NCBI GenBank assembly: GCA_030390025.1
Contig: CM059432.1
Span: 42,906,001-42,970,000 of the forward strand
Direction of reading: 5' to 3'
DNA: 64,000 nucleotides
DNA from: Squalus acanthias
Taxonomy: Eukaryota
Each line of letters opens with the position of its first letter. The stretch's first letter is position 1. The notes below the pieces were generated by a model. The model did not search any database and was not told the DNA's origin. It saw only the letters and a program-made list of their open reading frames with translations. Position numbers and translations under genes: made by a program. Of this stretch, positions 20,056-62,232 are shown one piece after another.

Positions 20056-20431
20056 CCTCGCCCCTCCCTATCTCTGTAACCTCCACCAGCCCCACAACCC
20101 CGCCTCGCCCCTCCCTATCTCTGTAACCTCCACCAGCCCCACAACCTCGCCTCGCCCCTCCCTATCTCTGTAACCTCCACCAGCCCCACAACCCCGCCTC
20201 GCCCCTCCCTATCTCTGTAACCTCCACCAGCCCCACAACCCCGCCTTGCCCCTCCCTATCTCTGTAACCTCCACCAGCCCCACAACCCCGCCTCGCCCCT
20301 CCCTATCTCTGTAACCTCCACCAGCCCCACAACCCCGCCTCGCCCCTCCCTATCTCTGTAACCTCCACCAGCCCCACAACCCCGCCTCGCCCCTCCCTAT
20401 CTCTGTAACCTCCACCAGCCCCACAACCTCG
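20056..20431 (+). repeat. 47-bp minisatellite, 8 copies, derived from L2 sequence
   Basis: Unit cctcgcccctccctatctctgtaacctccaccagccccacaaccccg starts at 20056, 20103, 20150, 20197, 20244, 20291, 20338, 20385. Confidence 0.97.
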
Positions 20432-29168: not shown

Positions 29169-29648
29169 TCTTGATCTGATGTAGGCCATCCATGCAGTAT
29201 AGCTCCCATCTATCCTAGAACTGATGCCAATGCCCAACAAAGTGGAATCCCTCTTCCTAATACCACACCTTTTGCCATGTGTTGATTCTCTAACCTTCCT
29301 GTCCTTCCCTACTCTAGCGCATGTTTGCAGACGTAATCCTAAAAAGTAATCCTGCTTGTAAGCTTGTAATAAAAATACATTTCATTAAAGCAGTCATGTA
29401 CTTATTTACCTTCCAGAGAGCCAGAGATACAGAATGTGGAATCTGTGGCCCTGAATTTCCTTGGAGACTGGGGCAGACTTGTAGCAGGTGAGGAAAAATG
29501 GGGTAGGACCAATTAACACTGGGGGGGCGAAATTCAGTTACACCCCATTTGGGGGCAGTAACCGAATTAGCACCGGCTACGGACACGGCAATGGCACACC
29601 CAGCCCAGTCAACCCTGAAAAGTCCTCCTCAACATTGACTCTGGGAAC

Positions 29649-29740
29649 GGTAGCATAGTGGTAATGATACTGGGCTAGTAATCTGGAGGCCTGGACTAAT
29701 GATCCAGATCCAGAAGACGTGAGTTCAAATCCCACTGGGG
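29649..29740 (+). promoter_or_regulatory. tRNA-derived Pol III internal promoter (A and B boxes), LINE copy 1
   Basis: A box TAGCATAGTGG (29651-29661); B box GAGTTCAAATCC (29721-29732). Confidence 0.75.
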
Positions 29741-30009
29741 AATTTAATATCAGTTAATTAAATAAATCTGGAATGAAAAGCTAGTATTAGTAATAGTAAC
29801 CAGGAAACTATCGGATTGTTGTAAAAACCCATCTGGTTCACTAATGTCCTTTAGAGAAGGAAATCTGCTGTCCTTACCTGGTCTGGCCTGTAATGTGACT
29901 CCAGACCCACAGCAATGTGGTTGACTCTTAACTGCCCTCTGAAATGGCCTAGCAAGCCATTGTTACATTTGTTACACTCAGTTGTAACAAACCGCTACGA
30001 AACACATTA

Positions 30010-30488
30010 CAGGAAACTCTTTCGTATCTGGCACCGACGGGACCGGGATGGTGCCGGTTGATTAAAAATTCCGGATAACGGAGAGGTATATCTACCGAGG
30101 CTACTTTTAACAAACAAAAATTAAAAAATCAAGAAATGTGCAGTATAATTGGGTACTCACCTACAGAATGTTGTGTTAAGAGACTACCGGCAGCGCGGGA
30201 GAATCAGACTCCTGTTATTGAGGTGTTCGGATCGGAAGAGACTACCGGCAGCGCGGGAGAGTCAGACTCCTGTTATTGAGATGTTCGGATCGGAAGAGAC
30301 TACCGGCAGCGCCAAAAAGCTGAGTAGTGGCAGTTTGGAGAACTACCCCCACTGACTAACTCGGCCACCGCGGGAGACTCGGACTCGGCAACATTTCCGG
30401 TTATTGAGGTGTTGTATTTGGAGTATGAATTTTGCCGGTTATTAAAGAATTCTGGATATTTAGGTGCCGTTTAAACGAGAGTTTCCTG
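30010..30488. mobile_element. Tc1/mariner (pogo/Tigger-like) MITE
   Basis: TIR caggaaactct / agagtttcctg, TA TSD (30008-30009, 30489-30490); absent from LINE copy 2. Confidence 0.88.
30178..30312 (+). repeat. 58-bp tandem repeat (~2.3 copies) inside the MITE
   Basis: aagagactaccggcagcgc... starts at 30178, 30236, 30294. Confidence 0.92.
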
Positions 30489-33400
30489 TAATAAGAATAA
30501 AACTGGACCGACCACCCGGCATTGACCTTGGCACCAGCCAAGCCCAGCCCAGTCGGCCCTGCAAAGTCCTCCTCACAAACATCTGGGGGCTTGTGCCAAA
30601 ATTGGGAGAGCTGTCCCACAGACTAGTCAAGCAATAGCCTGACATAGTCATACTCACAGAATCATAACTTTCATCGCCATTACCATCCCTGGGTATGTCC
30701 TGTCCCACCGGCAGGACAGACCCACCAGGGGTGGCGGCACAGCGGTATACAGTCGGGAAGGAGTGGCCGTGGGAGTCCTCAACATTGACTCCGGACCCCA
30801 TAAAGTCTCATGGCTTCAGGTCAAGCAGGGGCAAGGAAACCTCCTGCTGATTACCACCTACTGCCATCACTCAGCTGATGAATCAGTACTCCTCCATGTT
30901 GAACACCACTTGGAAGAAGCACTGACGATAGCAAGGGCACAGAATGTACTGTCTGGGTGGGGGACTTCAATGTCCATCACCAAGAGTGGCTCAGTAGTAC
31001 GACTACTGACTGAGCTGGCTGAGTCCTGAAGAACATAGCTGCCAGTCTGGGCCTGCGACAGGTGGTGAGAGAACCAACACGAGGGAAAAACCTACTTGAC
31101 CTCGTCCTCACCAATCTACCTGTCGCAGATGCATCTGTCCAGTATTGGTAGCAGTGAGCACCGCACAGTCCTTGTGGAGACGAAGTCCTGTCTTTACACT
31201 GAGGACACCCTCCATCGTGTTGTGTGGCACTACCACCGTGCTAAATGGGAAAGATTCAGAACAGATCTAGCAGCTCAAAACTGGGCATCCATGAGGCGCT
31301 GTGGAACATCAGCAGCAACAGAATTGTATTCCACCACAATCTGCAGCCTCATGGCCCGGCATATCCCTCACTCTACCATTACCATCAAGCCAGGGGACCA
31401 ACCCTGCTTCAATGAGGAGTGTAGAAGAGCATGCCAGGAGCAGCACCAGGCGTACCTAAAAATGAAGTGCCAACCTGGGGAAGCTGCAACACAGGACTAC
31501 ATGCATGCTAAAAAGCGGAAGCAGCATGCTATAGACAGGGCTAAGCGATTCCACAATCAACGGATCAGATCAAAGCTCTGCAGTCCTGCCACATCCAGTT
31601 GTGAATGGTGGTCGACCATTAAACAACTAACGGGAGGAGGAGGCTCCATGAATATCTCCATCCTCAATGATGGTGGAGCCCAGCACATGAGTGCAAAAGA
31701 CAAGGCTGAAGCGTTTGCAACCATATTCAGCCAGAAGTGCCGAGTGGATGATCCATATTGGCTTACTCCTGAGGTTCTCACCATCACAGAAGCCAGTCTT
31801 CAGCTAATTCGATTCACTCCACGTGATATCAAGAAATGGTTGAGCACACTGGATACAGCAAAGGCTATGGGCCCTGACAACATTCCGCCTGTCGTGTTGA
31901 AGACTTGTGCTCCAGAACTAGCCACGCCTCTAGCCAAGCTGTTCCAGTACAGCTACAACACTGGCATCTATCCGACAATGTGGAAAACTGCCCAGGTATG
32001 TCCTGTCCACAAAATGCAGGACAAATCCAAACTGGCCAATTACCGCCCCATCAGTCTACTCTCAATCATCAGCAAAGTGATGGAAGGTGTCGTCGACAGT
32101 GCTATCAAGCGCCACTTACTCACCAATAACCTGCTCACTGATGCCCAGTAGGGTTTCGCCAGGAACGCTCGGCTCCCAACCTCATTACAGCCTTTGTCCA
32201 AACATGGACAAAGGAGCTGAATTCCAGAGGTGAGGTGAAAGTGACTGCCCTTGACATCAAGGCAGCATTTGACTGAGTGTGTCATCAAGGACCCCTAGTA
32301 AAACTGAAGTCAATCCGAATCGGGGAGGGAAACTCTCCACTGGCTGGAGTCATACCTAGCACAAAGGAAGATGGTTGTGGTCGTAGAAGGTCAATTATCA
32401 CAGCCCCAGGACATCGCTGCAGTAGTTCCTCAGGGCAGTGTCCTAGGCCCAACCATCTTCAACTGCTTCATCAGTGACCTTCCCTCCAACATAAGGTCAG
32501 AAATAGGGATGTTCGCTGATGACTGCACAGTGTTCAGTGCCATTCACAACACCTCAGATAATGAAGCAGTCCATGCCCCGCATGCAACAAGACCTGGACG
32601 ACGTTCAGGTTTGGGCTGATAAGTGGCAGGTAACATTCGCGCCATACAAATGCCAGGCAATGACTATCTCCAACAAGTGAGAGTCTAACCACCGCCCCTT
32701 GACATTCAAATGTATTACCATTGCCGAATCCCCCACCATCAACATCCTGGGGGTAACCATTGACCAGAAATTTAACTGGACCAGCCACATAAATACTGTG
32801 GCAACAAGAGCAGGTCAGACGTTAGCTATTCTGCGGCGAGTGTTTCACTTCCTGACTCCCCAAAGCCTTTCCACTGTCCACAAGGCACAAGTGATGGAAT
32901 ATTCTCCACTTGCCTGGATGAGTGCAGCTCCAACAACACTCAAGATGCTCGACACCATCCACAACAAAGCAGCCCGCTTAATTGATGCCCCATCCACCAC
33001 CTTATACATTCACTCCCTCCACCACCGGCGTACCGTGGCTGCAGTATGTACCATCTACAAGATGCACTGCAGCAACTCGCCAAGGCTTCTTTGGCAGCAC
33101 CTCCCAAACCCACAACCTCTTCCACCTAGAAGGACAAGGGCAGCAGACGCATGGGAACACCACCACCTCCAAATTCCCCTCCAAGTCACACACCATCCTG
33201 ACTTAGAAGTATATCGCCGATCCTTCATCGTCGCTGGGTCAAAATCCTGGAACTCCCTCCCTAACAGCACTGTGGGAGTACCTTCACCACACGAGCTGCA
33301 GCGGTTCAAGAAGGCGGCTCACCACCACCTTCTCAAGGGCAACTAGAGATGGGCAATAAATGCTGGCCTTGCCAGCGACGCACACATCCCATAAAATAAT

Positions 33401-36400
33401 TCAAAACAATTTACCACCCGGGGCGGGAGTACCGCTAAATTGAGCTTACCGCCCTGGCGAGGAAGTGGAGCACTATCTCCGGCGCTCCACTTCCTCTTGG
33501 GGTGCTGCGTTGGGCGCAAAGCACAGTAGCGCCCGAGCACTTCGCAGCCGCTCCACGTAGCATTGTCACGTTTCAGCGCCCCTCCCCTTCTCGGATTCTT
33601 GCAGGCGCTATTAGCGCCCCTGCCCGGGTGATAATCCCTTTGCACCCCCCGGAGGCTCTAACGGCGGGCGTAAAGGAGGCGAATTTCGCCCCCTGGGTGT
33701 CTATAATTCAGCTATGGACATTTCTGCTGTGGCCCTCCCATTCCCTGTCCTGCTGTCACCAGGTGCTTACCTCCAATGTGTTACACCTTGCTGTTTTTCC
33801 TCTGTTTAAAAAATGATAAGGGATGAAAATTAAATAGATAGGTAAAGAGATATCTATATATTATATCAAAAATCTTACTTAGGCCTACACTTGTTTACAA
33901 ACTTGGGGTCAATTTTCACTTCTATTGCCTGACAGGATAGCAGCTTGGGGGGAAATAATGGTGGAGGAAATAAACTAGAGCGGAGGCAAAATATGATGTT
34001 GTGAGAATAGAAATGTGATGGGAAACATACATGGTGGGTAGAGGAGGATGCACATGATGGGAAGCATAGGGAAGGGCATGCAGGCTGGGGTTAGAGGAAC
34101 AGAAGAGGGGTTGGTGGGTCTAATTATTGGATGGAGGGTTAAGTCAGGGAATTGGAGCAGGAACAGAGGGCAAGGGAAGCCACAGCCAATGGTTGGTGAG
34201 AGGAGAGGATGGCCGGTAAGGTGCAAAGCAATGGAAGGATTCATTGCATAAGACGGTACAGGAGAGCGCTGGGTTATGGAGGATACTATGCATCAAAACA
34301 TAATGCAAAGCAAAAAGGGTGAAGAATGCAATAGATGAAGTGGCAAGGGGACAGGAAGCAGTCTGTTACCTGTCACAACAAAGGGGTGGGCTAAAGCAAC
34401 AGGGATAGAGTGAAACAGTAGGGCATATGAAAACAGCCGCCAATGCCTATAAGCAACTGTTTCTCCAACCGTGCCTATAATTTGTTCAATATCATTTTTG
34501 CTAAAGCTATCATTTTTTTCCTATTTATATGTCAAGTAACTAACATTTTATATTCAATGCACAATACAGTACTTAAGCATTGGCATATGGATAAGACAGT
34601 GAAGAAGCCAATGGCTTCTATTGCACAAACCAGTGTGAGAAACAGTGCTCTTACCTTCCCACAAAATATTGGTATTTGGTACATAAACAAATTGTAAATC
34701 ATATATATCTTGCATGCAGTGCTTTGATTCATGTTCTTGTCATTGTGATACCAGGAATGTGTGAGGGGAGCATTTATTTGTTTCATTGTTTAATGTGTTA
34801 GTTTAGTTTGATGCAGTATAAGAGGTCACCTGGCATTGACAGTGCTGCATTTTGATTGGTCAGCCAATGGCATGATTTATAATGCATCCTTAACACTCAA
34901 CCTATGGAGCAAAATCAGTTGTAAATCTTGTTTTAGTTTTAAAGGGTTAAAACCTTGTCTGATTAACAGTGCCTGGCCCCATTGCTGGTTTACATTTACT
35001 AAATTGCTCTGGAGAGTGTGATGTGTTCTTTTTTTGACATTCCAATAGAGAGACTGCTTGTATGTTATGACCTGGTTTGATTTACTGTTAGAAATGAAAA
35101 GTGCTATAATTTGTGTAAGACATTTGTTGTGAATGCCAAAAAATGTTTTGTGGCTTCATTGGTATCCATCTGGTTTTATTTTTATTGTGTTTGAGTCACA
35201 TGAAATGTTGCTTAGCTGTCTTCATTTTTATTAGTCAGTATTGATTTATGGCTTTCAAAGTAAAAATAATTGGTCTGCATATGACTTACTTTACAGCTCT
35301 TGTCCAAGAGGAATGTGAGTGGCTGGAAAAGGAGTCTAAACAGCAGGAATGTCTTACAGTACACACTTTGTGAAAAAAAGCAGTCCTCCATTTCTGCTTC
35401 ATTGTGTATTTGTTTAACAGGCGCCTCCTTGACCGTTTGTGATGCTGCAGATCTCTGCTGCCGAGCACTTGTGTATACCATGCTAGAATGGTCATGTAAC
35501 ATCTAAAGCGAGTGCACTCTAAAAAATGGATAAGCATTCTTACCTGCGCTGTTCTACATGTTCTTTTTACTTTACCAATGGAAAATTCAAGGACATTTTA
35601 ATTATACATTTTATTTATGACTGCTAACAAGAGAAGAAAGTTGATTTTTTTCCATGCTGTATTTGATGAATTCCCAGCCTAAGTGAGTTCTTCCAGCCTT
35701 AACTTTAAAGACATCTTGTATTGCATGACAGTTCATAACATAAATCTATCTACATCTAACTTAGGAGTTGTACTGTGCTGAATCTTTATGTTCAAAGAAG
35801 TAGCTATAGCATGGTTGACTTCCTAGCTATGGTCTGGATTCAAACTCTCATCTCCGAGGGAAATAGGTGATGAGAGAACTTAGCACTCTGTCTGACTGGG
35901 TGTAATATCCTGCGTATTTTCCAAATGCTGTTTCTGTATTTAAAGTGCTTGAAGTAATACAGACTCTGAAAAAATTTGGTCATGATTTGCACACCTAGTG
36001 GGAACTTTCTCATGGGATCTGATTCAAAGAATGAGTTGCTGTCTTTGTTTTGGTGATAAAACTGAAGAGCACTAATAATGGCAAGTTGCAGTGTTTATCC
36101 CCGTTTACACTAGTTGGCAGGACCCTTACTGGTTGCTTAACTGTAGGTATTGTTGCCCTGTGATCAGAACTGTTCTAGTTCAAATTACAATCACAGTGGG
36201 GGCAGCTTAGCTGTTTGATAATGGTGCATGCATGTGCAGCACAGCCCAGCTATCAGGTAGTGGGTCATTTTTGTATTTATATGCTGGGAATGCTGTGCAC
36301 ACTACTAATATTGGCAGGATTCCAGTACTATTTTTATGCCATCTCACTGTTGATACTCAAAAGGTATTGGCTTGACTAGTTTAATGCCCGCAGTACAGGT

Positions 36401-39104: not shown

Positions 39105-40858
39105 GGCCGCGATTTCGCCGACCGAGGCAGGTCCGGGGCGGCCGGGGTCGGTGTCGCGGTCCCAGCCCGCTGCCTACTGCAGCCCACACTCTCCAAGTGA
39201 TTTTATGTTAAGCCTGCCCTGCAAGATTCCCGGCCAATTAAAAGGAAGCATCATTTGATGATCCGTCATCAGCCAGTTTCCTTAAGGGGGCCATGTCCAA
39301 ATTGATTTTGACAGTTGTGCTGTCAGTGTTCTACAGCATTGAGGTGCTGCAAACACTGATAATCACTGCACAAAGGTGAACGGCTGCACCCAGGCTCTCC
39401 GATGACTCCCTCCATACACTTATGGAGGGAATCACAGCATGCAGGGAGGTTCTCTTCCCTTCCGATGGGCAGAAGAGACTTCCCCAGGAGATCAAAGCAG
39501 CCTGGTTGCACATTGCACAGGAGGACACAAGCAGGGATGTCATCAGGAGGACCAGGCTGCAGTGGCGCAAACCTTTCAATGATCTCAGTAGATCACGAAA
39601 CGTTACTGCAAAGCCACACTCAACCTCATCCTGCTGTGCCACTCATCACATCCCCATCACTCTGCCTTCCCTACCTTACTCCTGCACATCTTTACTCACA
39701 CCAACTTACCTTGCACCTCCACCCATCCCTCTCTATCTACATTATCACTTCCCCATTTCACTAACCACCCCTCACACTCACCCTCATCCTAGTCCAATCA
39801 TACCAACTAACAACACACAAGGGTAGGCACTTGGGTGGTTTAGCCAATGTTCATGTGAAGTTTCTGGTAATGTGCTGTCAAACATTGAAACCTTTATTTT
39901 CGGCACTTTGCATTCTTGGACAGATTTGTGTGAACCTTTGGAAGTGGCTTACTGAGTTGTAGTGAATGGTGAGACATAAGGGTACCCCACTCCTACAATG
40001 GTGATGAGTGTGAAAGGAATGGTTTGGGCATTGTAGGGATGCTTTATGGTGCTGGTGTGGGGTGGTGCCAACCTGGCGCACCATGTGGCAGCCAAGGTGT
40101 ACAGCGTCAAGTGAAGTAAATCTCCCATGGTGAGGCCATCCCTGGCATCCCGGGCAGCAATGTGGTCAGGTACTGATGCCCTGTGTCCTGTGCAGCATCA
40201 GTTGATTGCGAGAAGGCTGGTGTTGTTGTTGGTGCTGCTGGTGTGCCTGGTGATGCTGGTGTTGGGGCTGATCTTGGTGAGATTTTGAGGACCAAGGCGA
40301 AATATTGTCAAGGGCAACGATGCTAATGGAATAGATGGCAGGTGAGGTTGAGATGACAGAAACGATCTGTCAATGGTGATAGAGGTTGTTCCAATGAGGT
40401 GGCACTGGATAGAGAGTTGGCTCCAAACACTTGCAAGCTGCAGAAAGCTCAATATTTCTTCCAAAGGCAGTAACCAACAGTTTCTGAGCTTTGGAAGTGA
40501 ACAGCTGTAACATGGGATCTTTTATACAACTTTGGCAACTGTCAGGTCATGAGATAATTCAATGCTGAGTCCACTCACGACATGCTGAGTTGACGTGTTC
40601 CCCGAGCAGCGGGTAACCCGTGGGGGAGCAGGTAATATTGAAATGAAGGCATAAAATAACATTTAATTGGATGTTAACAATCCATTTAATGATGTCAATT
40701 GCCTCCCCCGCCGCTTGGTGTCAGGTCTGCTCAGCGCTGACAGACCCGATACCTGGGAGACTCGTGTGGAGGCAGGTTTTTCTATTTTTCTATCTTTTCT
40801 ATTTTGACAGCGGACCCACCTCCGAACCTGCCCTCTCAGCGCTGGCAAAATTCAGCCC
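39105..40858 (+). mobile_element. Non-autonomous Harbinger family A, copy 3 (uninterrupted)
   Basis: TIRs ggccgcgatttc / aaaattcagccc; perfect TSD AAT (39102-39104, 40859-40861); MEGITACREVLFP..AAWLHIAQE..QWRKPFNDL. Confidence 0.92.
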
Positions 40859-46500: not shown

Positions 46501-46611
46501 TAAAACACTAGTTAGGCCACAGCTAGAGTACTGCGTACAGTTCTGGTTACCACATTACAGGAAAGATGCGATTGCACTAGAGAGGGTACAGAGGGGATTT
46601 ATGTGGATGTT

Positions 46612-48667
46612 TTTAAAAATTCGTTACTGGGTCTGGGCATCGCTGGCAAGGCCGGAATTTATTGCCCATCCCTAATTGCCCTTGAGAAGGTGGTGGTGAG
46701 CCGCCTTCTTGAACCGCTGCAGTCCTTGTGGTGAAGGTACTCCCACAGTGCTGTTAGGGAGGGAGTTCCAGGATTTTGACCCAGTAACGATGAAGGAATG
46801 ACGACATATTTCCAAGTCAGGATGGTGTGAGATTTGGAGGGGATCTTGGAGGTGATGGTGTTCCCTTGCACCTGCTGTCCTTGTCCTTCTAGGTGGTGGA
46901 GGTCACGGGTTTGGGAGGTGCTGTCGAAGAAGCCTTGGCGAGTTGCTGCAGTCCAACAACTGCAACTATCTTTCTTTGTGGTAGGTATGACTCCAACCAG
47001 TGGAGAGTTTTGCCCCCTGATTCCCATTTATTTCAATTTTACTAGGGCTCTCTGATATCAAGAGCAGTCACTCTCATCTCACCTCTAAAATTCAGCTCTT
47101 TTGTCCATGTTTGGACCAAGGCTGTAATGAGGACTGGAGCCGAGTGGTCCTGACGGAACCCAAACTGAGCATCAGTGAGCAGGTTATTGGTGATTAAGTG
47201 CCATTTAATAGCACTGTCGACGACACCTTCCGTCACTTTGTTGATGGGGCAGTAATTGGCTGAATTGGATTTGTCCTGCTTTTTGTGGACAGGACATACC
47301 TGGGCAGTTTTCCACATTGTCGGGTGTTGTAGCTGTACTGGAACAGCTTGGCTAGAGGCGTGGCTAGTTCTGGAGCACAAGTCTTCAACACGATAGCCGG
47401 GATAGTGTCGGGGCCCATAGCCTTTGCTGTATCCAGTGCGCTCAGCCATTTCTTGATATCACGTGGAGTGAATTGAATTGGCTGAAGACTGGCTTCTGTG
47501 ATGGTGGGGACCTCAGGAGGAGGCCGATATGGATCATCCACTCTGCACTTCTGGCTGAAGATGGTTGCAAACGCTTCAGCCTTGTCTTTTGCACTCGCGT
47601 GCTGGGCTCTGCCATCATTGAGGATGGGGATATTCATGGAGCTTCCTCCTCCCGTTAGTTGTTTAATTCTCCGCCCACATTCACGACTGGATGTGGCAGG
47701 ACTGCAGAACTTTGATCTGATCCGTTTATTGTGGAATCGCTTAACTCTGTCTATAGCATGCTGCTTCTGCTGTTTAGCATGCATGTAATCCTGTGTTGCA
47801 GCTTCCCCAGGTTGGCATCTCATTTTTAGGTATGCCTGGTGCTGCTCCTGGCATGCTCTTCTGTACTCCGCATTGAACCAGGGTTGGTCCCCTGGCTTGA
47901 TGGTAATGGTAGAGTGAGGGATGTGCCGGGCCATGAGTTTACAGGTTGTGATGGAATACAATTCTGCTGCTGCTGATGGCCCACAGCGTCTCATGGATGC
48001 CCAGTTTTGAGCTGCTAGATCTGTTCTGAATCTATCCCATTTAGCACGGTGGTAGTGCCACACAACATGATGGAGGGTGTCCTCAGTGTGAAGACTGGAC
48101 TTCGTCTCCACAAGGACTGTGCAGTGGTCACTGCTACCAATGCTGTCATGGACAGATGTGTCTGCGACAGGTAGATTGGTGAGGACGAGGTCAAGTAGGT
48201 TTTTCCCTCATGTTGGCTCTCTTACCATCGGCCGCAGGCCCAGTCTGGCAGCTATGTCATAGAAACATAGAAACATAGAAACATAGAAACTAGGAGCAGG
48301 AGTAGGCCATTCGGCCCGTCGAGCCTGCTCCACCATTCAATACGATCATGGCTGATCATCCAAATCCAGTACCCTGTCCCTGCTTTCTCACACAGAATCC
48401 CCATCGAGCCTGCACCGACACATATCCCACCCTATCCCCGTAACCCCACATATTTAATTCCCCCTAACATATCCCATCCTATCCCTGTAACCCCAAGTCT
48501 ACACACCCGTATCTAAGGAGGTCCTTCAGGACTTGGCCAGCTCAATCAGTAATGGTGCTACCGAGCCACTGTTGGTGATGGACATTGAAGTACCCCACCC
48601 AGAGTGCATTCTGTGCTCTTGCTACCCTCGGTGCTTCTTCCAAGTGATGTTCAACATGAAGGAATAC
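46612..48667 (-). mobile_element. tRNA-headed LINE family, 5'-truncated and internally deleted copy
   Basis: ORF 47233..48111 near-identical to 31096..32151; 12-bp TSD TA(T/C)GTGGATGTT (46600-46611, 48668-48679); deletion near 46950. Confidence 0.9.
48259..48519 (-). mobile_element. Short CR1 3' tail with scrambled 5' junction
   Basis: atagaaac repeats plus CR1 3' UTR, followed by duplicated fragments; host reads through gctatgtc|cttcagg. Confidence 0.75.
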
Positions 48668-49589
48668 TACGTGGATGTTGCCAGGACTGGAGAATTTTGG
48701 CTATGAAGAAAGATTGGATAGGCTGGGGTCATTTTCTTTGGAACAGGGAAAAGTTCAGAGTGGAAGTGAAAAAGAAGATAAGAGGGGCAAAGAGAGGGTA
48801 TGAGAATAGATTGGCAGCTAACATAAAAGGGAATTCAAAAGCCATCTATAGGCATATAAATAATAAACAGGTAGTAAGAGGCGGGGTGGGGCCGATTAGG
48901 GAGCAAAAAGGAGACCTACGCATGGAGGCAGAGGGCATGGCTGAGGTACTAAATGAGTACTTTGCATCTGTCTTCACCAAGGAAGAACATGCTGCCAAAG
49001 TTATCGTGAAAGAAGAGATACTGGATGTGATAAAATTTGATACAGAGGAGGTACTAAAAAGGCTGGCTGTACTTAAAGTTAATAAGTCACCAGGACCGAA
49101 TGGGATGCATCCTAGGATACTGAGGGAAGTTAAGGAGGAAATCGCAGAGGTACTGGCCATAATCTTCCAATCCTCCTTAGATACGGGTGTGTTGCCAGAG
49201 GACTGGAGAATTGCAAATGTTACACCCTTATTCAAAAACGTGTGTAAGGATAAACCCAGCAACTACATGCCAGTCAGTTTAACCTTGGTAGTGGGGCAGC
49301 TTGTAGAAACGATAATCAGGAACAGAGAGACCTGGGGGTATATGTACACAAATCATTGAAGACGGCAGGGCAGGTTGAGAAAGCGGTTAAAAAAGCATAC
49401 GGGATCCTGGGCTTCATGAATAGAGCTATAGAGTACAAATGCAAGGAAGTTATGATGAACCTTTATAAAACACTGGTTCGGCCTCAATTGGAGGATTGTA
49501 TCCAATTCTGGGCACTGCACTTTAGGGAGGATGTGAAGGCCTTATAGAGGGTGCAGAAAAGATTTACGAGAATGATTCCAGGGATGAGG

Positions 49590-52500
49590 TAGCATAGTGG
49601 TATTGTCACTGGACTAGTAATCCAAAAGCCTAGATTAATGATCCAGAGAATGTGAGTTCAAATCCCACCATGACAGCTGGGGAATTTAAATTCAGTTAAT
49701 TAAATAAATCTGGAACAAAAAGCTAGTATTAGTACCCATCTGGTTCACTAATGTCCTTTAGGAAATCTGCCTTCCTTACCTGGCTCTGTCCTATATGTGA
49801 CTCCAGACCCACAGTACTGTGGTTGACTCTTAACTGCTCTCTGAAATGGCCTAGCAAGCGAGTCATAGATTTATCCAGCACAGAAAGAGGCCCTTTGGCC
49901 CATCGTGTCCACGCCGGCCATCAAGCCCTGTCTACTCTAATCCCATTTTGCAGCACTTGGTCCGTAGCCTTGTATGCTATGGCGTTTCAAGTGCTCATCT
50001 AAATACTTCTTGAATGTTGTGAGGGTTCCTGCCTCTACCACACTTTCAGGCAGTGAGTTCCAGATTCCAACCACCCTCTGGGTGAAAAAGTTTTTCCTCA
50101 AATCCCCTCTAAACCTCCTGCCCCTTACCTTGAAACTATGCCCCCTGGTTATTGATCCCTCTACTAAGGGGAAAAGTTCCTTTCTATCTACCCTATCTAT
50201 GCCCCTCATAATTTTGTACACCTCAATCAGGTCCCCCCTCAGCCTTCTCTACTCTAAGGAAAACAACCCCAGCCTGTCCAGTCTCTCTTCATAGCTGAAG
50301 CGCTCCAGCCCAGGTAACATCCTGGTGAATCTCCTCTGCACCCTCTCCAATGCAATCACATCCTTCCTATAGTGTGGCGACCAGAACTGCACACAGTATT
50401 CCAGCTGTGGCCTTACTAGCGTTTTGTACAGCTCCATCATAACCTCCCTGCTCTTATATTCTATGCCTCGGCTAATGAAGGCAAGTATCCCATATGCCTT
50501 TTTAACCAGCTTATCTACCTGTTCTGCTGCCTTCAGGGATCTATGTACATGCACACCAAGGTCCCTCTGATCCTCTGTCCTTCCTAGGATCCTACCATTC
50601 ATTGTGTATTCCCTTGCCTTGTTAGTCCTCCCAAAATGCATCACCTCACACTTTTCAGGGTTAAATTCCATTTGCCACTGTTCTGCCCATCTGACCAACC
50701 CGTCTATATCGTCCTGTAGCCTGAGGCTTCCCTCCTCGCTATTTACCACTTCACCAATTTTCGTGTCATCTGCGAACTTACTGTTCATACCTCCTACATT
50801 CATATCTAAATCATTAATGTACACTACAAACAGCAAAGGACCCAGCACCGATCCCTGCAGTACACCACTGGACATAGGCTTCCAGTCACAAAAACAACCT
50901 TCGACCATCACCTTTTGCCTCCTGCCACTAAGTCAATTTTGGATCCAATGTGCCAAATTGCCCTGGATCCCATGGGCTCTTACCTTCTTGACCAGTCTCC
51001 CATGCGGGACTTTGTCAAAAGCCTTACTGAAGTCCATGTAGACTACATCAACTGCATTACCCTCATCCTCACACCGAGTCACCACCTCAAAAAATTCAAT
51101 CAAATTGGTTAGACATGATCTCCCCCTGACAAAGCCATGCTAACTATCCTTGATTAATCCTTGCCTCTCCAAGTGGAGACTAATTCTGTCCCTCAGAATT
51201 TTTTCCAATAATTTCCCTACCACTGATGTTAGGCTCACTGGCCTGTAATTCCCTGGTTTATCCCTACTACCCTTCTTGAATAATGGTACTACGTTAGCTG
51301 TCCTCCAGTCCTCTGGCACCTCCCCTGTGGCCAGAGAGGTTCTGAAAATTTGTGTCAGAGCCCCTGCAATCTCTTCCCTTGCCTCACACAACAGCCTGGG
51401 ATACATCTCATCTGGGCCTGGGGATTTATCCACTTTTAAGTCCGCTAAAACCGCTAGTACCTCCTCCCTCTCAATACTAATTTGTTCAAGTATATCACAA
51501 TCCCCCTGCCTGATTTCTATGCCTACATCGTCCTTCTCCATAGTGAACACAAATGCAAAATATTCATTTAAAACCTCACCCACATCTTCGGCTCTACACA
51601 CAGATTGCCACTTTGGTCCCTAATGGGCCCTACTCTTTCCCTGGTTATCCTCTTGCCCTTAATATACTTATAAAACACCTTGGGATTTTCCTTTATTTTG
51701 CCCACCAGTGTTTTTTCATGCCCCCTCTTCGCTCTCCTAATTTCTTTTTTAATACCCCCCCTGCACTTTCGATACTCCTCTCGGGCTTCCACTGTTTTTA
51801 GTCCTTTGTATCTGCCAAAAGCCTCCCTTTTTTTCCTAATCCATTCTTGTATATCCCTTGACATCCAGGGTTCCCTGGGCTTGTTGGTCCCACCCTTGAC
51901 CTTTACGGGAACATGTTGGCATTGTACTCTCTCTATTTCCTTTCTGAAAGACTCCCACTGCTCTGATGTGGATTTTCCTACAAGTAGCTTATCCCAATCC
52001 ACTTTGGCCAGATCCTGCCTTATTATATTAAAATCGGCCTTCCCCCAATTTAGAACCTTTATTTCCGATCCATCTTTGTCCTTTTCCATGACTACCTTAA
52101 ATCTCACCAAATTATGGTCACTGTCACCAAAATGCTCTCCTACTGACACTTCTACCACTTGCCCGGCTACATTCCCTAGAAATAGGTCCAGTATCGCCCC
52201 CTCTCTTGTAGGACTTTCTTCATGCTGGCTCAAAAAGCTCTTCTGGATGCACTTTAAGAATTCCGCACCCTCTAAGCCTTTCACACTCTGACTATCCCAG
52301 TTAATATTGGGGAAGTTGAAATCCCCTACTATTATTACCCTATTATTTCGACATTTCTCTGAGATTTGCCTGCATATCTGTTCCTCTATCTCCCCCTGAC
52401 TGTTTGGGGGCCTATAGTACACTCCCAGCAAAGTGCTTGCCCCCTTTTTGTTTTTAAGTTCTACCCATATGGCCTCATTAATGGAACCTGCTAAGATATC

Positions 52501-55500
52501 ATCCCTCCTTACAGCAGTAATTGACTCCTTGCTTAATATTGCGACACCCCTCCTCTTTTACACCCCCCTCTGTCTCGCCTGAAGATTCTATACCCCGGAA
52601 TATTGAGCTGACAGTCCTGCCCCTCCCTCAACCATGTCTCTGTGATAGCAACAATATCATACTCCCATGTGTTCATCAACACCTTCAATTCATCTGCCTT
52701 ACTCGCAAGACTCCTTGCATTAAAATAAATGCCATCCAGCCTTGCCATACTCCCTTGTGCATACATATTTGCTCTGCCTTCCAGGCTGACTTGTTTTTTC
52801 CTCTATATTTGGCTGTGCATCACCCCCTACTATAGCTCCACTCCGTATCCCATCCCCCTGCCAAGTTAGTTTAAACCCCCCCCCAACAGTACTAGCAAAC
52901 CTCCCCGCAAGGATGTTGGTCCCGTTCCGGTTCAGGTGCAACCCGTCCGACTTGTACAGGTCCCACCTTCCCAAGAAGCAGACCCAGTGATCCAGGAAAC
53001 TAAAGCCCTCCCTGCTGCACAAACTCTTTAGCCACGCATTCATCTGCTCTATCCTCCTATTTCTATACTCACGAGCACATGGCACCGGGAGTAATTCAGA
53101 GATTACCACCTTTGAGGTCCTGCTTTTTAATATGCTACCTTGCTCCCTAAATTCTTGTTGCAGGACCTCATCCCTCTTTCTACCTATGTCGTTGGTACCA
53201 ATGTGAACCACGACCTCTGACTGTTCGCCCTCCCCTTCAGAATGCCCTGCAGCCGTTCAGTGACATCCTTGACCTTGGCACCAGGGAGACAACATACCAT
53301 CCTGGAGTCACGTCTGCGGCCACAGAAACGTCTATCTGTTCCCTTTACGATAGAATCCCCTATCACTATTGCTCTCCCACTCTTTTTCCTCCCCTCCTGT
53401 GCAGCTGAGCCACTCGTAGTGCCACGGACTTGGCTCTTGCTGCATTCCCCTGAGAAACCATCTCCCCCAGCAGTATCCAAAAAGCAGTTGTAACAAACCG
53501 CTACGAAACACAATAATAATAATGAAACCGGACGGATCACCCGGTATCAAACTCGACACCGGCTACAGACACGGCAACGGCACACCCAGCCCAGTCAACC
53601 CTGCAACGTCCTCCTCACCAGCATCTGGGGACTTGTGCCAAAATTGGGAGAGCTGTCATACTCACAGAATGCCCCAATGTCCCAAACTCCTCCATCACCA
53701 TCCCTGGAAGAACAGACCCACCAGAGGTGGCAGCACAGTGGTATACAGTCGGGAAGGAGAGGCCATGGGAGTCCTCAACATTGATTTCGGTCAAGCATGG
53801 GCAAAGAAACCTCCTGCTTATTACCACCTACCACCCTCCCTCAGCTGATGAATCAGTACTCCTCCATGTTGAACACCACTTGGAAGAAGCGCTGAGAGTA
53901 GCAAGGACACAGAATATATTCTGGGTGGGGGACTTCAATGTCCATCACCAAGAGTGGCTCGGTAGCACCACTACTGACTGAGCTGGCCGAGTCCTGAAGG
54001 ACATAACAGCCAGTCTGGGCCTGCGACAGGTGGTGAGAGAACCAAAACGAGGGAAAAACCTACTTGACCTTGTCCTCACCAATCTATCTGCATCTGTCCA
54101 TGACAGTATTGGTAGCAGTAGATTCAGAATAGATCTAGCAGCTCAAAACTGGGCATCCATGAGGCGCTGTGGGCCATCAGCAGCAGCAAAATTGTATTCC
54201 ACCACAATCTGTAACCTCATGGCCCGGCATATTCCTCACTCTACCATTACCATCAAGCCAGGAGACCAACCCTGGTTCAATAAGGAGTGCAGAAGAGCAT
54301 GCCAGGAACAGCATCAGGCATACCTAAAAATGAGGTGCCAACCTGGGGAAGCTGCAACACAGGACTACATGCATGCTAAAAAGCAGAAGCAGCATGCTAT
54401 AGACAGGGCTAGGCGATCCCACAATCAACGGATCAGATCAAAGCTCTGTTGTCCTGCTACATCCAGTCTTGAATGGTGGTGGACCATTAAACAACTAATG
54501 GGAGGAGGTGAAGGCTCCATGAATATCCCCATCCTCAATGATAGTGGAGCCCAGCACGTGAGTGCAAAAGACAAGGCTGAAGTGTTTGCAACCATCTTCA
54601 GCCAGAAGTGCCAAGTGGATGATCCATATCGGCCTCCTCCTGAGGTCCCCACCATCACAGAAGCCAGTCTTCAGCCAATTCGATTCACTCCATGTGATAT
54701 CAAGAAACGGCTGAGCGCACTGGATACAGCAAAGGCTATGGGCCCCAACAACATCCCGGCTATCGTGCTGAAGGCTTGTGCTCCAGAACTAGCCACGCCT
54801 CTAGCCAAGCTGTTCCAGTACAGCTACAACACTGGCATCTATCCGACAATGTGGAAAACTGCCCAGGTATGTCCTGTCCACAAAAAGCAGGACAAATCCA
54901 ATCCAGCCAATTACTGCCCCATCAGTCTACTCTCAATCATCAGCAAAGTGATGGAAGGTGTCGTCGACAGTGCTATCAAGCGGCACTTACTCACCAATAA
55001 CCTGCTCACTGATGCCCAGTTTGGGTTCCGCCAAGACCACTCGGCTCCCGACCTCATTACAGCCTTGGTCCAAACATGGACAAGGGAGCTGAATTCCAGA
55101 GGTGAGGTCAGAGTGACTGCACTAGAAATCAAGGCAGCATTTGACCGAATGTGGCATCAAGGAGCCCTAATAAAACTGAAGTCAATGGGAATCGGGGGGA
55201 AAACTCTCCACTGGCTGGAGTCATACCTAGCACAAAGGAAGATGGTTGTGGTGGTTGAAGGTCAATCATCACAGCCCCAGGACATCAGGGCAGGAGTTCC
55301 TCAGGGCAGTGCCCTGGGCCCAACCATCTTCAGCTGCTTCATAAGCGACCTTCCCTCCAACATAAGGTCAGAAATGGGGATGTTCGCTGATGACTGAACA
55401 GTGTTCAGTGCCATTCACAACTCCTCAGATAATGAAGCAGTCCATGCCCGCATGCAGCAAGATGTGGACGACGTTCAGGCTTGGGCTGATAAGTGGCAGG

Positions 55501-56293
55501 TAACATTCGCGCCACAGAAGTCTCAGGCAATGACTATCTCCAACAAGCGAGAGTATAACCACTGCCCCTTGACATTCAACGGCATTACCATCACCAAATC
55601 CACCACCATCAACATCCTGGGGTCACCATTGACCAGAAACTTAACTGGACTAGCCACATAAATACTGTGGTAACAAGAGCAGGTCAGAGGCCAGGTATTC
55701 TGTGGTGAGTGTCTCACTTCCTGACTCCCCAAAGCCTTTCCATCATCTACAAGGCACAAGTAAGGAGTGTGATGGAATATTCTCCACTTGCCTGGATGAG
55801 TGCAGCTCCAACAACACTCAAGAAGCTCGACACCATCCAGGACAAAGCAGCCCACTTGATTAGCACCCCATCCACCACCTTAAACATTCACTCCCTCCAC
55901 CACTGACGTAATGTGGCTGCAGTGTACACCATCTACAAGATGCACTGCAGCAATTCGCCAAGGCTTCTTCAGCAGCACCTCCCAAACCCACGACCTCTTC
56001 CACCTAGAAGGACAAGGGCAGCAGGCACATGGGAACACCACCACCTCCAAGTTTCCCTCCAAGTCACACACCATCCTGACTTAGAAGTATATCGCTGATC
56101 TTTCATCGTTGCTGGGTCAAAATCCTGGAACTCCCTGCCTAACAGCACTGTGGGAGGACCTTCACCACACGGACTGCAGCGGTTCAAGAAGGCAGCCTAC
56201 CATCACCTTCTCAAGGGTAATTAGGGATGGGCAATAAATGCTGGCTTTGCCAGCGACGCCCTCATCCCATAAACAAATTTAAAAAATTTTTAA
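49590..56293 (+). mobile_element. tRNA-headed, ORF1-less CR1-clade LINE, copy 2 (head 49590-49860, body 53485-56293)
   Basis: A box TAGCATAGTGG, B box GAGTTCAAATCC (49654-49665); 455-aa RT ORF 54030..55397 ending MFADD; TSD atgagg/atgcgg (49584-49589, 56294-56299). Confidence 0.9.
49862..53482 (-). mobile_element. CR1 LINE, 5'-truncated (ORF1 esterase plus ORF2 EN-RT)
   Basis: VIGDSIVKG..HIGTND..DGLHLN; YFNARSL..ITETW; YRPP..GDFN..SDH; KFADDTK; few stops or frameshifts. Confidence 0.95.
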
Positions 56294-58915
56294 ATGCGGG
56301 TCTTCAGTTACGTGGATAGTCTAGAGAAGCTGGGGTTGTTCTCCGTAGGGCAGAGAAGGTTGAGAGGAGATTTGATAGAGGTATTCAAAATCATGAGGGG
56401 TCCAGACAGAATAGATAGAGAGAAACTGTTCCCATTGGCGGAAAGGTCGAGAACCAGAGGACACAGATTGAAGGTGATCGGCAAAAGAAACAAAGGCGAC
56501 ATGAAGAAAAACTTTTTTACGCAGCGAATGGTTAGGATCTGGAATGCACTGCCTGAGAGGGTGGTGGAGGCAGATTCAATCATGGCTTTCAAAAGTAAAT
56601 TGGTTAAGTACCTGAAGGAAAAAAAATTGCAGGGCTACGGGGAAAGGGCGGGGGAGTGGGACTAGCTGAAGTGCTCCATTAGAGAGCCAGCACGGGCTCA
56701 ATGGGCCGAATGGCCTCCTTCTGTGCTGTAACCATTCTATGATTCTATGATTCTAACAGAGGAGGCTGAGGGGAGACTTAATTGAGGTGTATAAGATTAT
56801 GAGGGGCCTAGATAGAGTGGACAGGAAGGACCTACTTCCCTTAGCAGCGGTCAATAACCAGGGGGCGGTGATTGAAAGTAATTGGTCGAAGGATTAGAGG
56901 GGAGTTGAGGAGAACTTTTTTTCACCCAGAGGATGGTGGGGGTCTGGGACTTACTGCCTGAAAGGGTAGTAGAGGCAGAAACCCTCATTGCATTTACAAA
57001 ATACTTGGATATGCACTTGAAGTGCCGTAACTTACAGGGCTACAGACCAAGAGCTGGAAAGTGGGATTAGGCTGGATAGCTCTTCTTTGGCCGGCACAGA
57101 CACGATCGGCTGAATGGCCTCCATCTGTGCTGTAAATTTCTATGATTCTATGATTTTATCCCCCTGTTCCCCATCTCCATTCAAAATTTACCATTTCAGG
57201 TGTACTTCGTTTTCATGACATCAGTCTACAAAGGACTGTGTCTGTTACTTATTTGCTTATCCTTTAGCCTTTTTATGTACTCTTGCATTCTTTCACAATT
57301 CTTGTTGCAATTTGCCATACCCTCCAAATTGATGTCTTCAGCAAATTTTGATATTGCTCTCTCAATTCCTAAATCCATATTATTTATATGCATAATAAAT
57401 AACAGCGACACCAATACAGACCCCAATAGAACATCACTCACTACATCTTACTCGTCGAAGAAGCAGCCCTTTAATGCTGCCCTTTGCTTTCCGACCTCCA
57501 CTCACCTCTCTATCATGTGGCCACATTCTCCTCAATTTCATGCGTCATCATCTCTTATCAGGTAACTTATCAAATATTATAAACCACATCCATTATCTGT
57601 ATACACTGCTAATTCTATAAGGTTGCTGAAGCATAATCTGCCTTTTAGAAATCCATGTTGAGTGGCCCTGATTAATTCAAGCTTTTTAATTTCATCCATA
57701 TTATAAGCTCTAGAGTGTAAAGCTTTCCGCCTTCCCCACATCGATTTTTTGGGGGGCAAATCTGAGGTGGACAAATCTGGCAAATCTGTCTGCTCAGTGA
57801 AAGCTGTGCCCATTGTACACCACATGCTAATGACATGGCCTCTCTGGCATTTCCTGCCATTTGCACTCTTTGAATGCTGGACGCACGGACCATCGGTTAG
57901 GCCTTGGCATCCAGCATTCAGTGATTGGCAGAAGATATAGATAAAGAGATGTTTCTCAGACTGAAAGAAAGTCTCACCCTATAAAGGCATGACTCCCTGT
58001 GAGTTAGTTATTGCAGGCCAGAAGCATAGCCAAGGTCAGTGGGGCATCTCAGGAATGAATGGCAAATCCACGCTGCCAGAGGTGTGGCCTATTTAAAGTG
58101 GGTGGGCAGAGGACAGAAAGGCTAGGCTTAGTTCTTTAACAACTAAAATAAGACTAATTGGCCTATGATTTCTTGCCTTATGCCAGTATCCTTTTCTTCC
58201 AGGCAGGTTAGCTTAAAATTATTCCAATTGCATCTGCTAATTCTGCTAACCTGTCTACATCCTTCTGACGTGTTCAGCAGTCATCCTTGCTGTTTGCCAA
58301 ATCCCTCACTTTTGTGACGTCAGAAAATTTCAGTATTGTGCTCCAGATCCATAGTTTTCAGACTGTCAACCAACTTTCTATTCATGCTATTACATTTCCT
58401 GTTATATCAAATGCCTACATTTTTGTAACCAGCTTCCTGAGACACCTTATTGAATCTCCCTATTTACCCACAGAACTCTATTCTTTTATGGACTCGCTTT
58501 TTAACCTTACAGGAATATATAAAAGTTGTATTCTGTACATCTCATATTTGAAGATTCTTCACTACTAATTTGTTGTTTGCTAACATTTTTGGCCAATTAA
58601 ATTGGACCATATCCCTTCTTATCTCACTGAAGTCTGTGTTCTTACAGTCCAGCACCCTTATTTTTGATAGCTCATTGACCTTTGACAGCAGCAGCAGCAG
58701 CGGCGGCAGTGCGGACCTGGGAGGAGCGGCGAGGCGGCGACGGTACCAACTCAGAACCGGCAGAATTTTCAACAAGTGACGTCCGAAGTCAAAAGTGATG
58801 TCGGCACAAGGGGAGGGAGCTGATTGGTGAGTATCTGGTAAGTGTTTATACTTGGCTTTCTTAGAGTTTTAAGTTTATTCCAGCTAGATTAGTAAATAGT
58901 CTGTTAATTAGAGGT

Positions 58916-59868
58916 ATGGCAGGGCAGCTCACACCCGTGGAATGCACATCCTGTGCCATGTGGGAAGTCCTGGACACCTCCCGTGGTCTGGGTGACCACA
59001 TGTGCGGGAAGTGTCGCCAGCTACAGCAGCTCGAGCACCGGGTTACGGAGCTTGAGCGGCGGCTGCAGTCACTGCTGTGCATCCGCGAGGCTGAGAGCTA
59101 CGTGGACAGCACGTTTCGGGAGGTGGTCACCCCACAGCTGAAGAGTGTGCAGGCAGAGAGGGAATGGGTGACCGCCAGACAGAAGAGGAGGACCAAGCAG
59201 GTAGTGCAGGAGTCCCCTGAGCCCATCTTGCTCACCAACCAGTATTTGGTGCTGAGTACTGGTGAGGGAGATGGTTCCTCTGGGGACTGCAGCCAGAGCC
59301 AAGTCCACAGCACCATGGAAGGCTCAGCTGCACAGGGGGTGGGGGGAAGAGGAGAGGGAGAGCAATAGTGAGAGGGGATTCAATAGTTAGGGGAGCAGAC
59401 AGGCATTTCTGCGGCTGCAGATGTGACTCCAGGATGGTATGTTGCCTCCCTGGTTCCAGGGTCAAGGATGTCACTGAACGGCTGCAGGGCATTCTGAAGG
59501 GGGAGGGTGAACAGCCAGAGGTCGTGGTCCATATCGGTACCAACGACATAGGTAGAAAGAGGGATGAGGTCCTGCAGGCAGAGTTTAGGGAGCTAGGAAA
59601 GAGGTTAAAAAGCAGGACCTCAAAGGTAGTAATCTCCAGATTACTACCAGTGCCACGTGCTAGTAAGTACAGAAATAGGAAGATAGAGCAGATGAATGCG
59701 TGGCTGGAGAGATGGTGTAGGAGGGAGGGCTTTAGATTCCTGAGGAATTGGAACCGTTTCTGGGGGAGGTGGGACCTCTGCAAGCCAGACGGGTTGCACC
59801 TCAACGGGAACGGGACCAATATCCTTGCGGGAGGGTTTGTTAGTGCTGTTGGGGAGGGTGTAAACTAG
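58916..59868 (+). pseudogene. CR1 ORF1 (zinc finger, coiled coil, SGNH esterase), frameshifted
   Basis: CTSCAMW..CGKC, LEHRVTELERRL, GDSIVRG, HIGTND, DGLHLN. Confidence 0.9.
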
Positions 59869-59999
59869 CTTGGCAGGAGGATGGGAACCTAAGAATAGAG
59901 TCAATAGGGAGGGAAGAAAAACTGGAATTGGAAAACAAAAACGTAGAAAGTAAATTGGAAGGACAGCGGAATCAAGGGCTAGATAGTAGTCAACAAGGA

Positions 60000-62010
60000 G
60001 GTTTGCCTGTACTAAATGGTATATACTTCAATGCAAGGAGTGTAGTGAACAAAGCAGATGAGCTGAGGGTACAGGTAGATACTTGGGACTATGATATTAT
60101 AGCTATTACAGAGATAAAAGGGAGGGTTATGACAGATACCGAGGGCTAAATACTGCAGAATCTTTAGAGGAGTACAGAAAGTGCGGGGGTGCAATTAAAA
60201 AGGATATTAGGAAAGCAAAGAGAGAGCATGAAAAATTCTTGGCACGTAAAATCAAGGAAAACCCAAAGATGTTTTATAAATATATTAAGAGTAAGAGGAT
60301 AACTAAAGAAAGGGTAGGGCCTATTAGAGATCATGAGGGTAATCTGTGTGTGGAGGCAGGAGACGTCGGTAGGGTTCTTAATGAATACTTTGCGTCTGTT
60401 TTCACAAAGGAGAGGGGCGAAGCAGACATTGCTATCAGGGAGGAGGAGTGTGAAATATTAGATGAAATAAACATAGTGAGAGAGGAAGTATTAAGGGGTT
60501 TAGCAGCTTTAAAAGTGGATAAATCCTCAGGCCCGGATGAAATGTATCCGAGGCTGCTAAGCAAAGCAAAAGAGGAAATAGGAGAGGCCCTGACCATCAT
60601 TTTCCAATCTTCTCTGGTTTCAGGTGTGGTGCCGGAGGACTGGAGGACTGCTAATATGGTACCCTTGTTTAAAAAGGGAGAAAAGGATAGACCGAGTAAT
60701 TACAGGCCAGTCAGCCTAACCTCGGTGGTGGGAAAATTATTGGAAAGAATTCTGAAGAACAGGATAAATCTTCATTTGGAAAGACACGGATTAATCAAGG
60801 ATAGTCAGCACGGATTTGTTAAGGGAAGGTCGTGTCTGACAAACTTGATTGAATTTTTTGAGGAGGTAACAAGGAGGGTAGATGAGGGTAGTGCATTTGG
60901 CGTAGTGTATATGGACTTTAGCAAGGCTTTTGATAAGGTTCCACATGGCAGACTGATCACGAAGTTAAAAGCCCATGGGATCCAGGACAAAGTGTCAAGT
61001 TGGATTCAAAACTGGCTCGGAGGCAGGAAGCAGAGGGTAATGGTTGATGGGTGTTTTTGTGACTGGAAGGCTGTTTCCAGTTGGGTTCCGCAGAGCTCAG
61101 TACTAGGTCCCTTGCTTTTTGTGGTATATATCAATGATCTAGACTTGAATATAGGGGGTATGATTAAGAAGTTTGCAGATGATACTAAAATTGGCTGTGT
61201 GGTTGATACTGAAGAAGGAAACTGTAGACTGCAGGAAGATATCAATAAATTGGTCAGGTGGGCAGAACAGTGGCAAATGGAATTCAATCCGGAGAAGTGT
61301 GAGGTAACGCATTTGGGGAGGGCTAACAAGGAAAGGGAATACACATTAAATGGTAGGACACTGAGTAGTGTAGAGGAACAAAGGGACCTTGGAGTGCATG
61401 TCCACAGATTCCTGAAGGTAGCAGGCCAGGTAGATAAGGTGGTTAAGAAGGCATACGGAATGCTTGCCTTTATTAGCCGTGGCATAGAATACAAGAGCAG
61501 GGGGGTTATGCTTCAACTGTATAAAACACTATTTAGGCCTCAGCTAGAGTACTGCGTGCAGTTCTGGTCACCACATTACAGGAAAGGTGTGATTGCACTA
61601 GAGAGGGTACAGAGGAGATTTACAAGGATGTTGCTGCAGTAGAGAATCTTAGCTATGAGGAAAGACTGGATATGCTGGGTCTGTTTTCCTTGGAACAGAG
61701 GAGGCTGAGGGGAGACCTTATTGAGGTGTATAAAATTATGAGGGGCCTAGATAAAGTGGATAGAAAGGACCTATTTCCCTTAGCAGAGTGGTCAAAAACC
61801 AGGGGGCACAGATTTAAAGTAATTGGTGGAAGGTTTAGAGGGGATTTGAGGGGAAATTTCTTCACCCAGAGGGTTGTGCGGGTCTGGAACTCACTGCCTG
61901 AAAGGGTGGTAGAGGCAGAAACCCTAACCACATTTAAAAAGTACTTGGATGTGCACTTGGGATGCTGTAACCTGCAGGGCTACGGACCAAGAGCTGGGAA
62001 GTGGGATTAG
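60000..62010 (+). pseudogene. CR1 ORF2 (endonuclease mostly deleted; RT intact over 467 aa)
   Basis: YFNARSV..IAITE then deletion near 60115; ORF 60239..61642 with YMDFSKAFDKV and KFADDTK; frameshift ~61640. Confidence 0.92.
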
Positions 62011-62232
62011 GCTGGATAGCTCTTTGTTGGCCGGCGTGGACACAATGGGCCAAAATGGCCTCCTTCCATGCTGTAACTTTCTATGATTCTATGACTCGAC
62101 TTTCATATAGAAACTATGTTGTGTTTGCTATTTTCCAATTCTTCATCTACTCTCACATAAGATTTTGTTCCAATTCATTTCCTGGAACTAAATCAAGCAG
62201 TGCTTCTTTCCCTGCTGGATTATAAAGATATT

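Follow-up and report, generated by a model that had tools for sequence, protein, structure and literature searches.

Vertebrate RNA polymerase III (Pol III) terminates at runs of four or more T (T4+). A 64,000-nt stretch of the Squalus acanthias genome (GCA_030390025.1, CM059432.1:42,906,001-42,970,000, forward strand; hereafter the window, in whose own positions all features are given) carries copies of a LINE that opens with a tRNA-like head and has a sense strand poor in such runs, and the initial annotation had proposed that selection for Pol III read-through keeps it so. The locus thus raises the question of whether the scarcity of T-runs is real and, if so, whether Pol III accounts for it. 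We find that T-run avoidance is real, family-wide and lineage-specific, in a tRNA-headed protein-coding LINE of a catalogued family. That the whole 3.3-kb RNA is made by Pol III would be the likeliest single explanation of the sequence pattern, at roughly even odds (about 0.5).

Copies of the element in the window

Copy 2, on the plus strand, is split in two. Its head (49589-49859), a tRNA-like promoter region (Rfam tRNA, E=0.88) aligning to positions 7-316 of the family majority described below, contains an A box (49590-49600) and a B box (49654-49664), and includes a body that we take to be Deu-like, ending in a hairpin with a CTAGCAA loop. The head is separated from the body of the LINE by an insertion of about 3.6 kb, an ordinary, 5'-truncated CR1 on the minus strand (49860-53484), recognized by its ORFs and by self-BLAST to the CR1 at 59257-62089; it has 18 T4+ runs on its own sense strand, and 4 nt of the element are missing at the break. 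The body (53485-56224; 95.4% to the majority) is a decayed single endonuclease-reverse transcriptase ORF with Pfam domains Exo_endo_phos_2 and RVT_1, whose landmarks are an in-frame TAA (53491-53493), a GCT (53500-53502) and the final TAG (56222-56224); stop codons interrupt it, two deletions of about 60 and 96 nt shorten it, and the copy is dead. The 3' tail (56233-56291) comprises AATAAA (56233-56238), TTT (56278-56280), A6 (56281-56286) and T5 (56287-56291).

The initial annotation had described head and body, both within 53485-56293, as free of TTTT up to the tail. The sole T4+ run of that interval is indeed the T5 at 56287-56291, after A6, and the head is likewise T4-free, but it lies upstream of the CR1 and not within the interval. 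AAAA is frequent on the same strand, as had been noted, with 14 A4+ runs in 53485-56293. Two weak-terminator-like words occur in copy 2 (TGTTT at 54583 and TCTTT at 56099), neither of them in the majority.

Copy 1 (29643-33410, plus strand; 95% to the majority) is full length, including the head. A MITE with terminal inverted repeats (30010-30488, strand unassigned) sits in a duplicated TA just past the ORF start and contains every T4 run of the copy (30105-30108 and 30430-30433), in agreement with the initial reading; the three weak-terminator-like words outside the MITE (31191, 32841 and 33088) are all missing from the majority. Inside this TA-flanked MITE are tandem duplications (30180-30320), and upstream a 64-nt piece of the same family (29571-29634, majority 392-456) abuts the head of copy 1, as if the copy had landed in or beside an older one.

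Three further pieces of the family carry the isolated T4 sites that had been reported, and all three sites were confirmed: a truncated, interrupted copy on the minus strand (46608-48668), with a private T4 at 47087-47090 and a T5 in its tail (46615-46619); a minus-strand 3' fragment (6935-7370), with a private T4 at 7013-7016; and an old 3' fragment on the plus strand (1299-1745; 18.5% substitutions from the majority), with a T4 at 1340-1343. The ordinary two-ORF CR1 that served as control (58687-62093, plus strand, with an esterase ORF1) is rich in T4+, with 10 runs. In the explanation that we favour, the window copies are dead and would be accumulating T-runs through neutral decay. The window also holds a second multi-copy repeat family (11409-12452, 14130-14852, 17967-19553 and 39105-40853; 81-87% identity between copies, several mid-sized ORFs) and a tandem array with a period of about 47 or 94 nt and 98% identity (20053-20431).

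Family identity, architecture and an ORF without an AUG start

On sequence likeness the family is the elasmobranch Zenon, already catalogued from sharks and rays in passages of Stuart et al. 2026 (PMC13343379), its nearest entry being SquAca_Zenon-1, whose first 400 letters (the length compared, by eye) are nearly identical to the family majority. When the head-ORF junction was searched against the 3.7-Gb S. acanthias genome, 40 places scored and 39 of them were fetched; head sequence lies upstream of the junction in 37 of these. A second search, with the head as query, found 29 other loci: 24 continue into the ORF, three are head-to-tail and SINE-like, and two are interrupted by other insertions. 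The family majority was built from 26 copies, namely 24 of the 39 loci (picked for a tail within the stretch) and both window copies. It is 3305 nt long: the leader, of 329 nt, contains the A and B boxes, a single frame of 973 codons (stop to stop) encodes APE and RT domains (Pfam), and AATAAA with an A-rich tail closes the element; ORF1 is absent, the leader holding only a 99-codon stop-to-stop frame that overlaps the ORF start. Many copies (L092-L120, L031-L069) carry several internal deletions of 10-100 nt at differing places, more than their 4-8% substitution suggests. Scanning metagenomes for the family gave one weak locus, and scanning viruses none.

The single APE-RT ORF, the lack of ORF1, the A-tail and the length of about 3.3 kb are those of elasmobranch Zenon as published in the passages cited (PMC13343379). 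The head, the T-run avoidance and the missing AUG are undescribed in the main text of that paper, where tRNA, promoter and polymerase III occur zero times (tRNA also zero times in the supplement); the structure is otherwise the same. In a quick RT tree of 64 rows, built without a labelled Zenon reference, the element falls in a clade of 37 rows (support 99), apart from CR1 and L2 of its own genome.

The A and B boxes are conserved among copies and retained across five elasmobranch species, whose published Zenon consensuses, about 16% apart, open with the same type of head and have no TTTT in the 400 letters visible (by eye). In the Zenon rows of hagfish (two) and coelacanth (one), the first 400 letters lack a head of this type and contain several T4+ (by eye), with the reservation that the rows may be cut short at this end or begin in flanking sequence. 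Against Rfam RF00005 the head scored 31.2 bits (gathering threshold 29) in one of six copies scanned (L106) and 22-23 bits in three more. ARAGORN returned zero tRNAs on the window, and a loosened score on relatives gave noise that was disregarded. At majority positions 30-70 the anticodon arm is duplicated, two Rfam alignments using either copy, and this segment differs in the rows of other species.

The leader is presumably SacSINE1, a Deu-SINE. By description this name is compatible with passages of PMC5499810. SacSINE1 and other Deu-SINEs share with the element a tRNA-like head, a body and a tail, and head joined directly to tail occurs here as well (3 of 29 head hits), but those SINEs are short and non-coding, whereas here a 973-codon ORF stands between body and tail (passages of PMC5499810 and PMC4824008). 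Two sets of contigs from sequencing run X9 (17 and 13) fuse the end of the leader straight to the last ~75 nt of the element, and the ORF stop codon sits within that SINE-shared tail; the element therefore reads as SINE head, Zenon ORF and SINE tail. Assembled contigs from four sequencing runs cover it along its whole length, which indicates presence and not transcription.

An A-rich tail is found in the great majority of 53 ends surveyed. Its form is AAT(1-6)A(5-9), with at least four T in 12 of the 53, ~45 nt past AATAAA, fewer than four in the other 41, and one in the majority; the longer T-runs may equally be post-insertion mutations. B2, Dip and Ves, which are T+ SINEs, are similar in having a tRNA head, AATAAA near the 3' end and a variable T-run before a short A-tail, but they are mammalian, non-coding and L1-dependent, and most tails of the present element fall short of four T (passages of PMC8466645).

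The first in-frame AUG of the ORF comes only at codon 287, and none precedes the endonuclease; nine further AUGs stand upstream or in another frame, and an in-frame stop lies 40 codons upstream of the endonuclease motif. A hairpin whose 7-nt loop reads CNAGCAA closes the leader and is present in all four of the folds that include it. The AGC of the loop is the complement of a GCT that lies in frame 12 nt beyond the stem, just upstream of the coding region. The second loop position (309) varies by lineage (T45/C12/G8/A1), as does one stem position, while AGC and GCT do not vary beyond decay. By eye, the GCT is present in the published Zenon-1 rows of all five species, and is in frame in four. 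We regard the hairpin and GCU as a candidate cap-independent start. Only three or four pairs are possible, no covariation or compensatory change was seen among the copies, and the leader region folds no better than its shuffles (z=-0.31). The PKI domain of the dicistrovirus IGR IRES is comparable in that a hairpin loop is complementary to an in-frame codon before an AUG-less ORF; that IRES is further defined by ribosome-binding pseudoknots (PKII/PKIII) and factor-free activity, and the likeness here is one of sequence (passages of PMC3517527). The idea of anticodon-codon mimicry has been raised for non-LTR elements in passages of PMC3894237.

T-run avoidance on the sense strand

Minimal Pol III terminators are TTTT and the TVTTT words TCTTT, TATTT and TGTTT, according to passages of PMC8466645. 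The initial annotation had turned on whether TTTT is missing from a consensus as well as from single copies: the majority of 26 copies contains none, and zero each of TCTTT, TATTT and TGTTT in its 3305 nt. The absence of T4 by itself is nevertheless a weak signal, barely or modestly beyond chance, as base shuffling predicts 3.9 runs (P=0.014), permutation of synonymous codons 1.85 (P=0.11) and a first-order Markov (dinucleotide) model 1.5 (P=0.23). The two caveats attached to the original observation thus stand, as the T fraction of 0.20 in copy 2 leads one to expect just 3.6 runs by composition, and all copies descend from one lineage.

Shorter tracts give the clearer result, and against codon-shuffled controls it is the depletion of TT and TTT, and not the T4 absence alone, that is significant. 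The majority has seven TTT for 20 expected (P<0.001), and its ORF five for 11.3 by codon permutation (P=0.005); a single window of five letters holds four T, against 7.65 by the same permutation (P=0.0065). At codon junctions, 8 of the 127 codons that precede a T-starting codon have T in third position, compared with 179 of 845 otherwise (Fisher P=2e-5), and 0 of the 27 that precede a TTN codon; TC, CT and CC show no depletion there. The observed-to-expected ratio (O/E) of TT, 0.70, is the lowest of 81 ORFs (mean of the others 1.03, minimum 0.80). The opposite strand is unconstrained (AA 251 for 256 expected).

Other elements keep their T-runs, as the annotation had noted for the ordinary CR1. 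Majorities made by the same procedure from the same genome have 15 T4 runs in 4.2 kb for CR1 (21 copies; TT O/E 1.18) and 7 in 1.94 kb for L2 (20 copies; 0.88). The relatives are 80 loci (L133-L212) from host DNA in symbiont assemblies, 79 with a frame of at least 400 codons; T4 is present in all 79 of these invertebrate relatives, at about the shuffled expectation, and four loci within the 37-row RT clade have 28, 14, 5 and 1. Rfam found zero tRNA heads in 14 relative loci, although contigs may miss 5' ends, so that their head-less status is provisional. Many intact LINE ORFs of animals turn up in the symbiont and environmental assemblies of the prokaryote collection, where host DNA has been binned with bacteria. 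One clade of invertebrate relatives (P0010, P0011, P0019 and P0021) has 1.6-1.8% phenylalanine, as low as the element, against about 3% in others.

Among individual copies, 175 young segments (228 kb) contain 25 T4 at 19 positions, or 0.11 per kb, five of them at one TTT site, a scatter expected of decay after insertion. Twelve old segments (12-25% substitutions) contain 11 T4 runs in 7.6 kb and are uninformative because they have decayed, and searches for distant subfamilies with three divergent fragments mostly returned the main family.

Possible transcription by Pol III and its rivals

The proposal of selection for Pol III read-through of a coding RNA survives in part, and none of the outcomes that the annotation had named as refuting it arose. 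In its favour are the T4-free majority, the T4 runs kept by other LINEs and relatives, the stable head and the conserved boxes; against it stand the codon-permutation result for T4 and a depletion too broad to single out Pol III. Permutations barred from T4 and TVTTT still leave 88-90 TT where 74 are observed, and about 22 TT at junctions where 8 are observed, and TA is also low (91 for 112 expected). TT depletion is thus larger than terminator avoidance yields and does not point to Pol III specifically; the excess would be consistent with Pol III if the enzyme is slowed by short U-tracts, but also with some other cause of UU/UA avoidance. T stretches in gene bodies modulate Pol III kinetics, according to passages of a preprint (bioRxiv 10.1101/2025.10.17.683076), while Pol III processivity is held to restrict SINEs to 100-700 bp in passages of PMC10886601, which counts against a 3.3-kb transcript.

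The strongest rival is that the element is a Pol II transcript like other LINEs, that the tRNA head was captured and is now a relic, or has another role, and that UU and UA are scarce for escape from, for example, RNase L or a U-rich RNA sensor, with the loss of T4 a by-product. RNase L prefers UU and UA. This reading, unlikely on balance though a real contender, draws on the joint depletion of TT and TA beyond what terminator avoidance needs, on TTT and T4 counts no lower than the dinucleotide model predicts, and on an AATAAA and A-tail that suit Pol II; the OAS-RNase L system is older than jawed vertebrates (passages of PMC10400998). Yet the CR1 and L2 of the same host keep their T-runs, and the TA depletion is unexceptional (L2 has 0.69), TT being the outlier. 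Retention of the A and B boxes across five species also weighs against it, and a capped RNA with so many misplaced AUGs and no in-frame one would be poorly translated by scanning.

We consider it improbable that composition was simply inherited, a T-poor, C-rich Zenon ancestor having recombined with an abundant SINE, so that chance and not selection removed T-runs. Only 2-4 T4 runs are expected, and the relative closest in composition, L140, is similarly T-poor, with one T4 in its ORF for 3.9 expected and a junction TT O/E of 0.53; it is partly TT-poor despite a T5 and a T6 in its 3' UTR, and some of the bias may therefore be ancestral. Elasmobranch Zenon moreover clusters with crustacean elements (passages of PMC13343379). 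A comparison of shared with private substitutions was not significant, and without power (TTT created in 0 of 25 against 139 of 1313, P=0.10; TT created at the same rate). Against inheritance, the junction TT O/E of the element is 0.33, below all 79 relatives, of which L140 is the minimum, and this persists after control for codon usage; the depletion of TT extends, too, through both head and ORF.

An artefact of consensus building, or chance insertion of a SINE upstream of LINEs, is very improbable: majority rules can shorten homopolymers and SINEs are abundant, but the procedure preserved 13-14 A4+ runs here as well as the T4 runs of CR1 and L2, the head-ORF junction is identical at dozens of loci, and the T4 counts in single copies refute it.

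Were Pol III the polymerase, TFIIIC would act on the A and B boxes, and Pol III would initiate at the first G, read through 3.3 kb and terminate at a T-run in or beyond the tail; terminators in the tail would resemble those of T+ SINEs, which regrow beside short A-tails. Pol III RNA is uncapped. Such an RNA would have to be translated without a cap, and a candidate means is pairing of the in-frame GCU with the AGC loop that closes the leader; by target-primed reverse transcription, the resulting protein would then make copies of the RNA that encodes it. In the literature searched (Repbase and Dfam notes and subscription journals lying outside its scope) we found no Pol III-transcribed or tRNA-headed autonomous LINE. 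The nearest cases are RTE-1_DAn, a LINE with tRNA-like sequence but of the RTE clade (passages of PMC5786205), and Cassandra, Helenus and Ajax, non-SINE retrotransposons with a promoter derived from a small RNA, which are short, non-coding TRIMs (passages of PMC10886601).

The accepted view in passages of PMC10886601 is that Pol II transcribes LINEs, whereas what Pol III makes is short and codes for no protein. If transcription by Pol III is true, a naturally occurring protein-coding RNA of 3.3 kb from this polymerase would overturn the division and blur the boundary between SINEs and LINEs; it would also show how an uncapped nuclear transcript gets translated, and would open the so far unexplained conservation of the Deu domain to testing. 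More speculatively, and in our estimate rather doubtful as a whole, the element may be an autonomous SINE. Under this reading a Deu-SINE would have gained an endonuclease-RT gene from Zenon, placed between its body and its tail; Pol III would transcribe the element whole, translation would need neither cap nor AUG because a fold closing the Deu domain mimics a tRNA, and the lineage would have gone on to populate sharks and rays. In that case the Deu domain would gain a role in translation.
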